Shown: positions 18,732-64,000 of the stretch, in pieces
Layout: each line of letters opens with the position of its first letter
How positions within the stretch are numbered: the first letter of the stretch is position 1
Assembly (NCBI RefSeq): GCF_018350175.1
Contig: NC_058368.1
Span: 112,284,001 to 112,348,000 of the forward strand
Direction: 5' to 3'
Origin: Felis catus
Taxonomy: Eukaryota
Length of the DNA: 64,000 nt
Position numbers and translations under genes: made by a program
Notes under the pieces: model-generated
Database searches by the model: none
Seen by the model: the letters and a program-made list of their open reading frames with translations, nothing else
Told to the model about the DNA's origin: nothing

Positions 18732-19836
18732 TATACGGCATTGTTCTGGGTACCTGTCGTAACTTGAAGGGAAACTTTCACAATGTCCAGAGCACTTGAT
18801 GCCCTGCGAATGAAGGGGAGGATGTCCTCAAATTCCTTGCAGCAGGAACCCACTTAGGTGGCACCAAAGTTGACTTCCAAGTGGAACAGTGCATTTGCAA
18901 TAGGAAAAGTTACAACATCTATGTCATGAATCTGAAGAGAACCTGGGAGGTTTCTACTAGCAGCTTGTGCCATTGGTGCCATTGACAACCCGGCTGATGT
19001 CAGAGTCCTGTCCTCCCAGAATACTGACCAGCAAGCTATCCTCAAGTTTGCTGCTGCCACTGGAGCCACTCCTGGTGCTGGTCACTTTGCTCCTGGAACC
19101 TTCACCAATGATCCCGGGGGTGACCTCAGCCCCACCCCAGATCCAGGAGCCATGGCTTCGGGCGCCTAGTGACCCCGGGGGTGACCTCAGCCTCACCCAG
19201 ATCCAGGAGCCATGGCTTCGGGCGCCTAGTGACCCCGGGGGTGACCTCAGCCTCACCCAGATCCAGGAGCCATGGCTTCGGGCGCCTAGTGACCCCGGGG
19301 GTGACCCCAGCCTCTGATGGAGGCCTCTTATGTTAACCTGTCTACCCTCACTCTGTGTAACACAGACTCTCCTCTGCCATCCCCTGCAGCAACCAGGCTG
19401 CTGCCTCAGCGGCTCTGACGCGGTGGATGCTGGCGCAGGCAGTTCTGCGCATGTGCGGCGCTCTTCCCCAGGAACTGGCGAGAGGTCACGCCTAACCCAG
19501 ACCGCTAGGAGGTCCCTGGAGGGGAAGAACAGGCCGCTGCTGACAGGGATTGACCTGGGAGGCACGTCAGGGTGCATGGACTGCTCCAGTGCCCCAATTT
19601 ACTGCTTCTCACCCCCACACGGCAGGCTGGTCTGAAGGTGAGCGGTGCCTGGGTGCTGGTGCAGCCCACCCCGCGGAAGCCTGGGTGCCCCCCTCCCCCC
19701 GCCGCCACTGAGGACTGGCCCGCGGTTAATGCGTGGGAGCAACCACTGAGTGGTCTTAAGCTGTTTTTTCCAGACTCTTAAGTAGAAAACGGAAATAAGC
19801 TTGATGGAAAACGAGGTTTCTTTAAAAAAAAAAAAA
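18732..19836 (+). pseudogene. RPSA: Processed pseudogene of ribosomal protein SA (uS2 / 37-kDa laminin receptor)
   Basis: RPSA-like 5' UTR, ATG at 18783 ([26 protein letters not shown]), C-terminus VGATTEWS* at 19759, no introns, frameshifts and deletions, poly(A) 19824-19836. Confidence 0.93.
19110..19312 (+). repeat. 60-bp minisatellite, about 3.4 copies, inside the RPSA retrocopy
   Basis: Units start at 19110 (61 bp), 19171, 19231 and 19291 (partial); units 2 and 3 are identical. Confidence 0.97.
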
Positions 19837-50046: not shown

Positions 50047-51954
50047 ACACCAACTTTGTGGATGGGTTTTATACTCTGAAAATAAATGTACACAAGGAAA
50101 AGGGAAATGAAATGTTATTTTTAACAGAATTACCGGTATTCATCTATTATCTGTTATTTCTGGTGATTTTATCAGTGAATTGGCAATTTAATATTTTACT
50201 GAATAAACAAAACAATCCATGTTATGTAGAATCAGATTTAATGTGTAGCACAATCCCTTTGTTTACAACTGCAAGGCAGTTTTCTAACCTGGTACTTAGA
50301 TGAAATTTTCATTTGACTTTCGGTTTCACTGCTTTTCCAGCGAGGGATTATATTAGCGACAACTTTTTTGGTGATAACTTGTAAGATTTTAACAATACAT
50401 TCTGTAAGCTTACCGAATAAAACACGTACAGCAAAATGTTTATAAATGTGCTCTCAATTTAGGATCCACTGTACATTCTTTTACCTTACTTGGGCCATTG
50501 GATTTCATTTTAGGGCATTAAAATTAAAGAGTAGGTCAGCCCTTTCAAAATAAGTGTATTTTGGAAAAAGAAAACAAAAATAAGCGTATTTTGAATAAGC
50601 TTTGAATTATTGATGTCAGCAGTTTCATATATCTTATGTTATGTCACTGGATCGTTTCTCAGTCATGTGTATAACTGGTTGATTCATACTAAAATGTGTG
50701 TGGTAGCTCTTGAGATATAGCTTTGCAACTATTTTTGCTTTTCATTTTAGTTTTCCTAAACCCTAAAGATGACATTTCATTTTTGTAGCAACTTAATAGG
50801 TCTCTCCCGCTTTTGGGATCCAACCTTCTCCTATAATTAAGAAATGTTTCACATCATACAGATATATATATATTTCTAATGTTCAGGGATGAAAAGAGGG
50901 TTAAATAGTCTACCAAAGTTAAATAAAGTTCAAAACCATTCTTAGCATTATTTTGCCTCTGAAATAATTGTGTGCTTAAACACTTTGGATTCTTATGTAG
51001 AATGTACACACAAGATAACCCTATATACTTGGGTGTATCTGGACCTGAAATTTGCTGGAACTTAGTTGTGTCTCAAGCTGGCTAATACCTGGAGATTCAT
51101 CATGTCTTTTTGTTGGAGAAGACTACTCATTCCTTTGCTATTGAGCATCAGGTGCATTGCTTACAAGGCTCTGTCCCTCGTGTGTCCAGCTTCAGTAGAG
51201 CTCCTTTGTCCTGGGTGTCACCTGAAAATTGTGCTTCAGTTTAAGAAATGAAATTAGTTCAGAAGAAGGCACTGGACAATTTAATATAACAACAATGACT
51301 GCAACAATGATTAAGCCTTTACTATGTTCCAGTACTTAGGGTACTCTAATCTTCACAACAGCCATATGAGATGAGGTACTGCTATTCTCCCTGCCCTTCA
51401 GATGAGGAAACTGAGGCTTAAATTTGCTCAGACAAGATTGCATGTTTGTAAATGGCCCGGCTGGGACTTTTCCAGGCCTATGCTTTTGATTATGTTTTAC
51501 TGTCTTTCAGAACCCCCAGGAGTTGTTAGCACAATTGCACTGTGATGCTTTCTTCTCTGTAGAAGTTAGTAAGAGTACAGTAATTGACCAGGAAGGAGCC
51601 TGGGACACACACTGCTTCCATAAACGTTTCCTTTTAGAAGCCTCCCCAACCACTCCCTCCCATTCACAAACTCAATCACATACCATTGCTTTATTCTTCC
51701 AGTGCGACTTGTCCCAATTTCAGGGATGGCATTTCTCATGCTATTTCACGATTTGACCATAGCTCTTTGAGAGCAAGTTCCCTCTTATCTCTATATCCCT
51801 AGCATGTCGCAGTACCTATCAATGCATGAAAGTAGATTGCTATTAAAATTTGTTAAACTGTTTTTCATTTTCTAATGTTAATCCGTACAATTAGAAGACA
51901 CATGTCTAGGAAATGAGGAAAGTGTTATCACTTAACATTTTTAATGTTTACAGA

Positions 51955-52320
51955 ATGAAGAGGAACAGTTTATCTGTTGTGAATAAAATTGTCCAGTCTT
52001 CACCAGCAGTGAAACAACCAAAAGTTGGGTTCTACTCTTCTCTCAGCCACACCCACATGCACACTGTTCTTCTAGACTGGGGGAGTTTGCCTCACCACGT
52101 AGTATTACGCATTTTTCAGTATCTTCCTTTAATAGATCGGGCCCGGGCATCTTCAGTATGTAGGAAATGGAATGAAGTTTTTCATATTCCTGACCTTTGG
52201 AGAAAGTTTGAATTCGAACTGAACCAATCAGCAACTTCATATTTTAAGTCTACACATCCTGATCTCATTCAGCAGATCATTAAAAAGCATGCTACCCATC
52301 TCCAGTATGTCAGCTTTAAG
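51955..52320 (+). CDS. FBXL21: F-box/LRR-repeat protein 21, coding exon 1 (F-box)
   Basis: acag|[12 protein letters not shown]...[36 protein letters not shown] (F-box)...YVSFK|gtaag. The four exons (366+123+172+644 = 1305 nt) give 434 aa of the FBXL3/FBXL21 family; position between IL9 and LECT2 identifies FBXL21. Confidence 0.96.
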
Positions 52321-52345
52321 GTAAGAAAAGTGTTAAATAGAAACG

Positions 52346-52582
52346 ACTTGCATTTTGTTAATGTCATTTTTTTTGTAGATCTAGATCCCAGTATTGAAGC
52401 GGTCAATGAATTTTGCAGGATTTTTATTCTGAACAATTTCCTGTTTTTCTGTAGTTATTTGCATACTTGCATTTTGTTAATGTCATTTTTTTGTAGATCT
52501 AGATCCCAATATTGAAGCGGTCAACGAATTTTGCAGGATTTTTATTCTGAACAATTTCCTGTTTTTCTGTAGTTATTTGCAT
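52346..52582 (+). repeat. Tandem duplication of 119/118 bp at the 5' end of an FBXL21 intron
   Basis: 52346-52464 and 52465-52582 differ by 2 substitutions and one T. Confidence 0.95.
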
Positions 52583-56276: not shown

Positions 56277-56647
56277 GTACACTATATCTTTTAAAGCTTT
56301 TTTGATGTTTTTTTTATTATACTAATAGTAATGTAATTTCATACTGAAAACTACATGCTTATGAAACAATTGAAAAAGTAATATTTTTTCAAAAGAAGTC
56401 TTAATCTGTAAACTAGGCATAGTTTAAATTGCATCTAAAAGTATTTTAGTCATAGGTATATTTTATTATGCATATATTTTTTATTACTACATATAATTGT
56501 ATGCCTGTATCTTGGCATCCATCTCAGAAATCATTTCATGACTATTTTGGCAAATAATGAATAACTAATGTCAAATTTAGATTTATGAAATGTTGTGTTA
56601 GTATCAGTAATTCTTGGTTCTTTAAAGTTTTTCCCTGTTTCCTGCAG

Positions 56648-57291
56648 GAATCCTTTGTATAGCTGACCATTGTCAAGGCCTTAGAGAATTGGCATTGAAT
56701 TATTACATTCTAAGTGATGAACTTCTCCTAGCCCTTTCAAGTGAAACTCATGTTCGCCTTGAACATCTTCGAATTGATGTTGTGAGTGAAAATCCTGGAC
56801 AGGTTGAATTTCACACTATTAAAAAACAAAGTTGGGATGCACTTATTAAACACTCCCCTGGAGTTAATGTTGTTATGTATTTCTTTTTATATGAAGAAGA
56901 ATTTGAGGCATTCTTCAGAGAAGAAACCCCTGTTACTAACCTTTATTTTGGTCGTTCGGTAAGCAAAGCAGCTCTAGGCCGGATAGGTCTTAACTGTCCA
57001 CGACTAATTGAGTTAGTGGTATGTGCTAATGGTCTTCAGACTCTTGACGATGAACTTATTTGCATTGCTGAATGCTGTAAAAACTTAACAGCCTTGGGCC
57101 TCAGTGAATGTGAAGTGAGTTGCAGTGCATTCGTTGATTTTGTAAGACGGTGTGGGAAAAGGCTGACCCACCTCTCCATAATGGAAGACGTTTTGATCCC
57201 TGATGGTAATTATAACCTAGATGAAATTCACACTGAAGTCTCCAAATACTTGGGAAGAATATGGTTCCCTGATGTCCTGCCTATCTGGTAA
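56648..57291 (+). CDS. FBXL21: FBXL21 coding exon 4 (LRRs and C-terminal Trp tail)
   Basis: cctgcag|(G)[26 protein letters not shown]...[13 protein letters not shown]; in frame with exon 3. Confidence 0.96.
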
Positions 57292-61303: not shown

Positions 61304-61970
61304 ATAATGTGTAGAAATAAGTGGCTACGATATGCATATGGTAAATGAGCCTGACTGACTTGGTTCCAGGAGATACTTCAGGTTAAGATAGACCTCTTTC
61401 TCATTCCAGTGCTTCCTATAATGTGTTCTTACTGAAATTGAGACTACTGATGTATTTTCTTGGAATGCCATCATTTATGATTTAGAAAATCTTGTTGATA
61501 TAGTGTGGGGAAGTGTGGTTGTGCAGACCAGCAAACTCTGTCTTAATCCATGCAAGCCCCTCACCCTGTGACCAGTTTGACATACCTGAGGATATTGCTT
61601 TGCTGAAACTTTTCAATACCTTAACTAAAGTTTAACTCTCATTTGTTCACTCAATATTTGTGCATGTGTGTCTAGCATTGTGCAACATTCTCTTCTTGTA
61701 CCAAGAAAATAACTTCAGGCTTTTTCTTATTTTCAAGCAGAAAGGTAGCTAGTTTTAGAAGTACCAAAAATGCAGCCTGGATAGCTGGAAGTCATGTTTG
61801 TTAATCCTATGTACTGAAGACTAAGGAAATTTAAACAAACAAGCAAAACCCCTCAGATCCCATATGTAACAGAAAAATCAGAGAACCCTCAGAAATTAGT
61901 TGACAATCAAAAATCAGAGTGGCAATGAGTTGAAATAAAATACTATTTTCTATTTTGCACTCATCATGTT

Positions 61971-61976
61971 TTTATT
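61971..61976 (-). terminator. LECT2: LECT2 polyadenylation signal
   Basis: AATAAA on the - strand about 90 nt after the stop codon. Confidence 0.7.
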
Positions 61977-62066
61977 TGGACACAAATTTCTTGAAAAGTA
62001 GGATATGCATCCACATTTTTAAGAAGATGGTTTTCTATTTAGAAGATCTGGTCATCTGTCTTCTAC

Positions 62067-62233
62067 TTAGAGATATGCAGTAGGATCACTCAAGTCACAG
62101 TTTTCAATATGTATATGGGATTGTATGCCAGGATGAACTTTCTGCAAGGGCAATACAGTTCCCAGTTTTTCTCCCTTCTTGATGGAACCTTTATATTTAA
62201 TTGGCTTAATATGGAACATTTTTATACAAAAAC
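62067..62233 (-). CDS. LECT2: Leukocyte cell-derived chemotaxin 2, last coding exon (rest of gene beyond the window end)
   Basis: ttcttttag|(G)[54 protein letters not shown]; matches the human LECT2 C-terminus including the M23 HxH motif; expected synteny. Confidence 0.96.
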
Positions 62234-62289
62234 CTAAAAGAAAAGAAATTAAATTAGTTTTTATCTGGGTTTTAGTAGCCTTGAGTCAG

Positions 62290-63725
62290 AAATTCAAAAA
62301 ATAACAGAAATGGAAGAAAAGACAAAAAAAATGAGTTGATTGAACTCAATGAGGAAATTGAGGAAGATGACAAAATCATACCAGAAATGACTAAAATTAC
62401 AAGATGCCGAAGGGAAAACAGATTCATATGAAAATTTAATAAAGACATTGAGGAATAACAGAAAAACGCTAGCTGAGAAAATTGAGACTATTAACATATT
62501 TTCTTGTTCTCACCCAGAACAATTTCAACTCTAAGACATATTCTTATAAAATGATGAGACTTTAAAGACAAATAAAAATGGACATAATTGGCACAAGATT
62601 GAAACTCTTACTAAATACCCAAAGAAAATAATTTTAAAGACAAAGACCCACCAAATAGATAAGTGGAGTTATTGTAATACTATCATCATAATGTAATATG
62701 ACAATGTTGAGACCACATATATGAGTTATATCTATAAATGTTAACTCATCTGTTAAAAAAATGTTCCTACTAGCTTAAAAAGCAAAACCCAATTATATCC
62801 TATATACAGTAAAACACAACAGTTGAAAAAGGCAAAAAATAAAGGGCTGGATCAAGATTTGTCAAGCAAATGGAAACAATAAGGAAAGCAAGGGTTATGA
62901 ATCTGTTATCAGAGATTCGGATTCGGGACAAAAAGCATTGAAATGAAACAAAGGAGGACAATTTGTAATGCTAAATCCAATGAAGATACAGCATTTACAA
63001 CCACCTGCACACTAAACACAAACCATCTATATAAGGCAGAGACTACTGGAGAAACAGGGAGAAATAGAAACACACTAGAAGATTTTAATACACATATCAG
63101 TGAAAACAGTCAAGTAGACAGAATTGTGCTGTCTGACATGGTAGCCACTAGCCACAAGTGGCCAGTCTGCACTTGAAATGTAGCTCATCTGAATTAAATG
63201 CACTTTGAGTATAAGATGCATGCTGGATTTTGAAGACAGTACAACAAAAGTAAAATACTAGTAATTTTTATGTTGCATTTTAAAATAATATTATAGACAC
63301 TGAATTAAATAAAATTTATTAAAATTAATTTTACCTATTTTTTAACTTTCATAATGTAACTAGAGAATTTTAAATTATCTATGTGACTTGTATTTCTGTT
63401 GGACATTGCTGATTTAGAAGATCTAAACAAAATCAATATAATGTGTCTTATATGCATGTTAAACAATATGTGCACAATTTCAACCCTGCAAGCCAATGTG
63501 ACAACTAATATAACAGTACAGGAAGAACTAAATAAATGGAGAATATAACATGTTAATTAATTAGAAGACTCATTACTTTTAAGATATCAGTTCTCAATTT
63601 CATCTGTGTAGTCAATGCAAACCCAAAGTCCCAGCAGAATTTTTGGTGGAAATTGATAAACTAAATCTTTTTTTAATGTACTTTTTAAAGTTTATTTATT
63701 TTGAGAGAAAGAGAGAGAGAGAGAG

Positions 63726-63762
<37 letters not shown>

Positions 63763-64000
63763 GTGGAGGACGGTCATAGAGAGTGGGCGAGAGAGAATCC
63801 CAAGCAGGCTCCACGCTGTCAGCCTGATGAAGAGCTCAAACTCATCAACCATGTGATCATGAGGCACTCTAGATCATTGAGCTGAGATGAAGAGTCAGAA
63901 GCTTAACTGACTGAGCCAACTAGATGCCCCTGATAAACTGATTTTGTAATATATTTGGAAATGCACATGAGGAAGAATTGTCAAGGCAATCTGAAAGAAT
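62290..64000 (+). mobile_element. Degenerate LINE-1 pieces in the LECT2 intron, with nested MER33-like element (about 63120-63415) and SINE
   Basis: A-rich L1-like sequence; tgtgctgtctgacatggtagccactagccac ... ttggacattgctg hAT-Charlie ends. Confidence 0.6.
63680..63930 (-). mobile_element. Can-SINE with (GA)n(GT)n microsatellite
   Basis: Reverse-strand head, TSD resembling tgataaact. Confidence 0.85.

Follow-up and report, generated by a model that had tools for sequence, protein, structure and literature searches.

A histidine aligned with the second catalytic histidine of M23 peptidases in LECT2 of the cat and other mammals

LECT2 has been described as the sole vertebrate protein with the M23 peptidase fold. 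LECT2 is treated as a dead enzyme, with one histidine absent and the groove blocked, in the accounts given in PMC9662197 and PMC13565873. In the window analyzed here, that is, a 64,000-nucleotide stretch of the domestic cat genome (C1:112284001-112348000), an exon of LECT2 carries a histidine codon at residue 104, which the original prediction, made from the letters alone, took for the absent residue, with the encoded protein as a candidate peptidase. The question that arises is what a histidine does at this site, and the variant has to be placed in the gene, in the fold and in the evolution of the family in order to address it.

By sequence comparison with the public Felinae LECT2 (P0045, 151 aa, entered for Felis catus and Lynx pardinus), the exon in the window is the last one of LECT2 (Table 1). 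The AG acceptor at 62235-62234, with a polypyrimidine run before it, sets the beginning of the coding exon at 62233, and, as read in the window, the intron interrupts the Gly97 codon. Retranslation of 62237-62067 on the minus strand yielded the same CAT codon at the same position, 62211-62213, as originally read; the replacement of Tyr104 by His104 in cat LECT2 corresponds to a single transition, TAT to CAT. The S-H-I-H string that had been assigned to 62109-62117 has to be corrected in one respect: H-I-H is encoded there, and the serine sits at 62120-62118. Intron 3 of LECT2 also contains a compound (GA)n(GT)n microsatellite (63700-63770 of the window).

Table 1 Features of the LECT2 last exon and its flanks in the window (window coordinates).
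Feature	Position	Strand	Basis or remark
LECT2 last coding exon (residues 97-151)	62070..62233	-	55/55 residues identical to Felinae LECT2 P0045
LECT2 stop codon TAA	62067..62069	-	direct sequence reading and translation
AG splice acceptor of intron 3, polypyrimidine run before it	62234..62235	-	direct reading
CAT, His104 (mature His86), in the column where canonical M23 peptidases have their second catalytic His	62211..62213	-	reading and alignments
H136-I-H138, HxH motif	62109..62117	-	direct reading; motif roles as outlined in PMC9662197
GTA, Val123	62154..62156	-	direct reading; Leu in 27/27 Tyr104 mammals compared
CAT, His130, second Tyr-to-His change	62133..62135	-	reading; all Feliformia sampled and Talpa
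Candidate polyadenylation signal AATAAA, some 90 bases past the LECT2 stop	61971..61976	-	sequence reading

A hyena LECT2 query against the cat genome produced three minus-strand matches, all open and free of stop codons, namely the exon in the window, C1:112353103-112353291 and C1:112355437-112355571. When P0045 served as the TBLASTN query, the last exon was identical in 55 of 55 residues, the exonic parts of the other two matches were identical as well, and a signal-peptide match of 12 residues appeared at the edge of the locus. The HxxxD zinc motif had been expected outside the window, and indeed HQGVD, with H53 and D57, is encoded by the upstream exon at C1:112353103-112353291 of the same genome; in the upstream parts seen, the frames are open and this motif is present, with neither disruption nor loss of the zinc ligands. 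The cat LECT2 gene is intact wherever it was seen, in coding parts that begin after residue 3 and at the acceptor of intron 3. The zinc ligands of LECT2 are His35, Asp39 and His120 in the numbering of the mature protein (PMC8039541), and all are present in the cat: H53 and D57 from the upstream exon and H138 from window positions 62111-62109.

The most trivial account of His104 would be an assembly or sequencing error at the codon, or else a rare polymorphism of one animal. This is hardly credible given that His104 is found in independent public proteins from eight feliform species (Felis and Lynx pardinus, Lynx canadensis, Panthera pardus, P. onca, Crocuta, Hyaena, and Suricata) and that all sampled 31-letter words of window 61950-62350 are present in 16 of the 24 listed sequencing runs, from 7 studies. 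Two gut metatranscriptome runs contained 0.63 and 0.53 of the words, which we do not take as evidence of expression. The codon, for which confirmation in raw reads had been considered advisable, thus recurs in independent feliform assemblies as well as in sequencing runs, and an assembly error at this position was rejected on both grounds.

Cat LECT2 scored 39.9 bits against the Pfam family Peptidase_M23 (PF01551, gathering cut-off 28.7), in agreement with the M23 fold that the original prediction had assigned to it. A search of the cat genome with PF01551 gave no match; domains split among exons fall below the threshold, so this result is uninformative on other M23 genes. In the description given in PMC9662197, zinc in M23 peptidases is bound by the His and Asp of H(x)nD together with the second His of HxH, water is acted upon by the first HxH His and by another His about 30 residues earlier (His260 in LytM, His329 in lysostaphin), and the oxyanion is stabilized by a loop-1 Tyr or Arg (Tyr204 in LytM). 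In the cat protein, 32 residues separate His104 from His136 of HxH. Three alignments bear on the equivalence of this residue with the earlier His. HMMER placed the His of hyena LECT2 opposite a ShyA His located 31 residues ahead of the ShyA HLH motif. A Tyr-only profile of 26 Tyr-bearing LECT2-type sequences, constructed to avoid the bias of matching His to His, was aligned by hhalign with E. coli MepM (sequence from the K-12 record) at a probability of 95% (E 3.4e-8, 97 columns), and in this match, which begins at the HxxxD motif, the LECT2 Tyr column falls on the His of MepM r-y-m-h-l-r-k. Finally, MAFFT paired cat His104 with the His in the R-Y-L-H-M-E-P string of a cyanophage P-RSM1 protein annotated as an endolysin. 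The proposal that residue 104 is the site of the missing catalytic His of M23 was thus borne out by the same column being found with ShyA, MepM, and the P-RSM1 endolysin. The equivalence, which is one of sequence and profile alignment, is sound: His104 falls in the column in which canonical M23 peptidases have their second His, the one that activates the water. Among the positions checked, the canonical M23 residues present in cat LECT2 are H53, D57, H104, H136, and H138.

The AlphaFold2 model of the cat protein, built from a 66-sequence alignment with cat LECT2 as the first sequence, had a mean pLDDT of 90.1 and a pTM of 0.82, with low confidence limited to the signal peptide. In a Foldseek search of the PDB with this model, the top match was human LECT2 5B0H (E 3.3e-24, TM 0.98 when normalized by target), which superposed on the model with an rmsd of 0.8 Å over 133 of 133 mature residues, including the N-terminal segment. 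Active M23 enzymes came next, namely a peptidoglycan peptidase (6jmx-6jn1), LytM (1qwy, 2b13, 4zyb, 2b0p, 2b44), lysostaphin (4qpb, 5nmy), ShyA, and Csd3, and the matches extended to LytM domains without catalytic function, those of EnvC, DipM, and SpoIIQ. Human LECT2 lacks the catalytic His, and its groove is obstructed by an N-terminal loop; both features, which the original prediction had named, are described in PMC9662197 and PMC13565873. The cat counterpart of the obstructing segment (mature residues 1-34) is identical to the human one in 30 of 34 residues and lies, in the model, within the 0.8 Å fit to 5B0H; the model predicts the human conformation for the entire mature cat chain, the N-terminal segment included.

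Apart from residue 104, cat LECT2 is close to its human ortholog. P0045 and hominid LECT2 are 87% identical, and hyena LECT2 matched human 5B0H with an E-value of 6.8e-76. Human LECT2 (5B0H, 9NON) shares with the cat protein the length, signal peptide, cysteines, HQGVD and HxH motifs, and the N-terminal segment, whereas the differences consist of His for Tyr at both 104 and 130, Val for Leu at 123, and a small number of changes at the surface. The absence from the cat protein of Tyr104, a hallmark of LECT2 within F-Y-[IV]-x-P, is a one-residue departure, and the orthology still stands. With the active M23 enzymes (LytM, lysostaphin, ShyA, MepM), cat LECT2 shares the fold (Foldseek probability 1.00; TM normalized by target of 0.50-0.57 against the isolated catalytic domains of LytM and lysostaphin), HxxxD, HxH, and a His about 30 residues before HxH. 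The sequence identity is only about 20%, however, and the canonical enzymes have neither the N-terminal motif nor the loop of the LECT2 type. EnvC and NlpD, degenerate LytM-domain regulators, exemplify the M23 fold in a non-catalytic role (PMC9662197; structural matches 4bh5 and 8c0j); unlike these, LECT2 keeps all the zinc ligands and the cat protein every catalytic His.

How unusual His104 is among LECT2 proteins was assessed in a set assembled from two homology searches and cluster listings, with all sequences containing HxH-[IVL]-[EQ] aligned; two chimeric-looking contigs (P0014 and P0021, both with Tyr) and isoforms or fragments without the last exon were left out. Of the resulting 125 rows, among them the window and repeated entries from single species, 105 have Tyr at residue 104, 18 have His, one has Phe (Rhea), and one has a gap; the census is partial, with 15 members listed from each of the clusters of 48, 107, and 47 members. 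The feliform rows with His104 are the window, Felis/Felinae, L. canadensis, P. pardus, P. onca, Crocuta, Hyaena, and Suricata, with a further row formed by a 50-aa fragment of hyena- and meerkat-like sequence. The perissodactyl rows come from Equus (three entries), Diceros (two), and Ceratotherium, and the remaining ones from Loxodonta, Saimiri, and a Notamacropus “LECT2-like” paralogue. Tyr104 was found in five entries of Caniformia (Canidae, Zalophus, Neogale, Mustela, and Enhydra), in Trichechus and Dugong, in all other primates sampled, and in the other marsupial paralogues, and it is the state in the sampled rows of birds, turtles, gharial, shark, and teleosts; pangolins and tapirs lie outside the sample. 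What had been proposed as a felid allele is instead a residue present in all eight species of Feliformia sampled and in at least four other mammalian lineages. As to whether it is fixed and lineage-specific, the former holds for all Feliformia sampled, and the latter fails with the recurrence in other mammals.

By a count on accepted taxonomy, there were at least five His104 events in mammals; if Carnivora and Perissodactyla are sister groups, two gains are no more parsimonious than a single gain with a later return to Tyr in Caniformia. Loxodonta and Saimiri, in which His104 is represented by one predicted protein each, still have the residues typical of their groups, Afrotheria and primates, and are therefore counted as separate events rather than mix-ups. 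All five mammalian events gave His, and none gave Cys, Asn, Asp, Ser, or Phe. With a 4:1 rate of the transition to each transversion, about one event in three should give His, so that five out of five has p of about 0.004 (about 1 in 250), which shows selective filtering of the replacements and could also reflect positive selection. Literature searches on LECT2 with cat, horse, pseudoenzyme, and catalytic histidine found no description of a His at residue 104 in any species, and what was found on the LECT2 catalytic histidine states only its absence. The gene and the protein are known from public databases, and the recurrence of His104 is without a prior description that we found.

In our assessment, these observations are best accounted for, with fair probability, by a tolerated, constrained, nearly equivalent exchange of Tyr for His in an otherwise ordinary LECT2, the near-equivalence in function being one that we infer. 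LECT2 is a secreted, zinc-binding hepatokine with the M23 fold, in which His is the one replacement of Tyr104 that the vertebrate protein repeatedly tolerates, probably because the Tyr and His side chains can both form hydrogen bonds in the second shell of the zinc site. A purely neutral exchange is a different matter: that only His was accepted, in five events of five, and that the site is among the best conserved ones in a very old family are points against it. This reading is the favoured one, ahead of an adaptive, non-catalytic retuning, which is followed by a restored peptidase and, last, by the artefact considered above.

The retuning reading derives from the changes that accompany His104 in a comparison of 39 mammals, 12 with His104 and 27 with Tyr104. 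L123V is present in 9 of the 12 His104 sequences, those of Feliformia and Perissodactyla, but in 0 of the 27 Tyr104 mammals, and these two groups, the sole carriers of Val123, have His104 in every species sampled. Y130H is common to all six full-length Feliformia compared, and Talpa is the one Tyr104 mammal that has it; F103L was found in Perissodactyla and Saimiri, as well as in the Tyr-bearing Bos javanicus and some turtles. The association of L123V with His104 is suggestive of a coupled change near the zinc site, and the exchange could then be adaptive, with His104 and L123V, joined in Feliformia by Y130H, adjusting the zinc site or the receptor-binding surface, a scenario that we consider possible yet rather improbable. 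The part that concerns the zinc site would amount to altered affinity, pH dependence, stability, or tendency to aggregate, and is to be viewed as equally tentative; relevant to it is the statement in PMC8039541 that loss of zinc promotes LECT2 aggregation, zinc being considered structural. On the other hand, residue 123 is not Val in three carriers of His104, namely Loxodonta, Saimiri, and the wallaby paralogue, and with five events, coincidence or a shared mutational bias could produce such an association.

A deeper view of residue 104 was obtained from the wider family. In a full HMMER scan with cat LECT2, 921 cluster representatives had E-values of 0.001 or lower; among the best 150 of them, those of at least 115 residues formed, together with the cat and hominid proteins, an alignment of 114 rows. 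In these rows, drawn from the best 150 of 921, the 104 column contains Tyr in 87, Asn in 12, Cys in 5, Val in 2, Met and Leu in 1 each, and a gap in 4, and His is confined to the cat query and a poorly aligned fragment (P0190). The full signature H-D-Y-H-H is present in 65 of the 114 rows, and Asn in the 104 column is often accompanied by degenerate zinc motifs. Five representatives (P0163, P0168, P0211, P0244, P0246) combine Cys104 with intact zinc motifs (H-D-C-H-H); from a Tyr codon, Cys is the other replacement reached by a single transition.

In a PHROGs scan, 31 of 33 distant representatives matched phage metallo-endopeptidase, endolysin, peptidase, or tape measure families, and cat LECT2 itself had no match. 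One distant representative (P0231) combines PG_binding_1 with an M23 domain of the Tyr type, and thrombospondin repeats mark another (P0214) as an animal protein. A TBLASTN search with cat LECT2 reached Salicola phage CGphi29 with 33% identity over residues 33-151 (E 3e-13). The protein in question, SLPG_00042 (L005:1339-1902, plus strand; 187 aa, annotated as hypothetical), scored 41.3 bits against Pfam M23, and an Rz-like spanin gene is located three genes downstream. In the MAFFT alignment, it has in common with LECT2 the motifs C-D-E-H-G-C-G-H-Y, H-E-G-V-D, F-F-Y-I-E-P, and H-V-H (given as residues of SLPG_00042). This protein is likely an endolysin of the LECT2 type, the lytic role being suggested by the position of the gene. 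More generally, the phage LECT2-type M23 proteins resemble LECT2 in the motif C-D-x-H-G-C-G-x-Y before HxGxD, the F-Y-I-x-P strand, and HxH, and differ from cat LECT2 in having Tyr in the catalytic-His column where the cat has His.

Judging by these alignments, Tyr and at least the proximal part of the N-terminal motif are the normal design of the LECT2-type clade rather than an acquisition of vertebrates. Given that Tyr occupies the column in 87 of 114 rows, phage proteins from lysis neighbourhoods included, it is not a recent loss, and the original wording, according to which the His was re-acquired, becomes doubtful on the same count. If the Tyr-bearing phage members are active, as the position of their genes suggests, Tyr alone is no proof of a dead enzyme, and cat His104 would represent convergence on the canonical M23 state, not a reversion. 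Equating Tyr with a dead enzyme and calling the His re-acquired are both too simple.

The more far-reaching reading of His104 is that it completes the M23 catalytic set, so that LECT2 of feliforms, horse, rhinoceros, elephant, and squirrel monkey would be a zinc-dependent peptidase or peptidoglycan hydrolase. The equivalence of the catalytic-His column in three alignments, the intact zinc ligands and HxH, and the repeated gain of the same residue in mammals speak for such a reading, and the spacing of 32 residues between His104 and HxH fits that given for LytM His260 in PMC9662197. Furthermore, LECT2-type M23 proteins of phages are encoded in lysis neighbourhoods, and the N-terminal motif of the clade thus need not preclude activity on the cell wall. 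However, the cat protein conserves the segment described as obstructing the groove, and its model can be superposed on the human structure; among the 39 mammals no His104 lineage has an accompanying change in the N-terminal segment, and human LECT2 is reported to be inactive on pentaglycine and other peptides. Moreover, if the Tyr forms of the phages are active, the His is not the limiting factor. The step from a full set of histidines to a candidate peptidase is therefore a weak one, with the loop conserved, no compensating change, and Tyr apparently working in the phage relatives, and we regard a restored peptidase as unlikely.

The preferred reading, a tolerated exchange of Tyr for His, neither needs nor implies a gain of peptidoglycan-hydrolase activity, and the cat protein would probably lack such a new activity. 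Cat LECT2 most likely works, like other LECT2 proteins, as a receptor ligand and a non-catalytic antibacterial or immune protein. Several known activities of LECT2 do not require catalysis, including the binding of MET and CD209a and the binding to Borrelia, and grass-carp LECT2-b has been described as killing bacteria through membrane damage (Hu et al. 2022, cited in PMC11929084).

A more radical possibility, to which we give little weight, is that the LECT2-type clade consists of working, Tyr-using M23 cell-wall enzymes, with phage members in lysis-gene positions, that vertebrate LECT2 retains a cryptic hydrolytic capacity towards a substrate yet to be discovered, and that the five or more independent His replacements in mammals, coupled with L123V in two of the groups, reflect selection on a live site. 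If so, hydrolytic activity should be easiest to detect, among natural proteins, in LECT2 of the cat or the horse. The present finding is a variant read from the sequence of a well-annotated gene, and its interest lies in the missing His having been restored by nature at least five times, in what would amount to natural controls for separating the His from the loop as the cause of inactivity. The His104 orthologs bear as well on whether Tyr in the LECT2-type clade is really inert, and the answer would bear on the route from a phage-type cell-wall enzyme to a cytokine.

The rest of the window contains a few additional features of note. Upstream of LECT2 and on the opposite strand are two long open frames, an F-box exon at window 51910-52515 (plus strand; Pfam F-box-like, 54.9 bits) and a frame at 56626-57291 (plus strand) that resembles leucine-rich repeats and matched no Pfam family. 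Both probably belong to the F-box/LRR gene that adjoins LECT2 in human, FBXL21. The segment 45459-46399 is very GC-rich, with long open frames of up to 254 aa on both strands; it has the appearance of a CpG island, and the F-box gene may have its promoter or first exon here. At 18957-19598, an open frame contains a unit of about 20 residues repeated three times, which suggests a minisatellite of about 60 bases.
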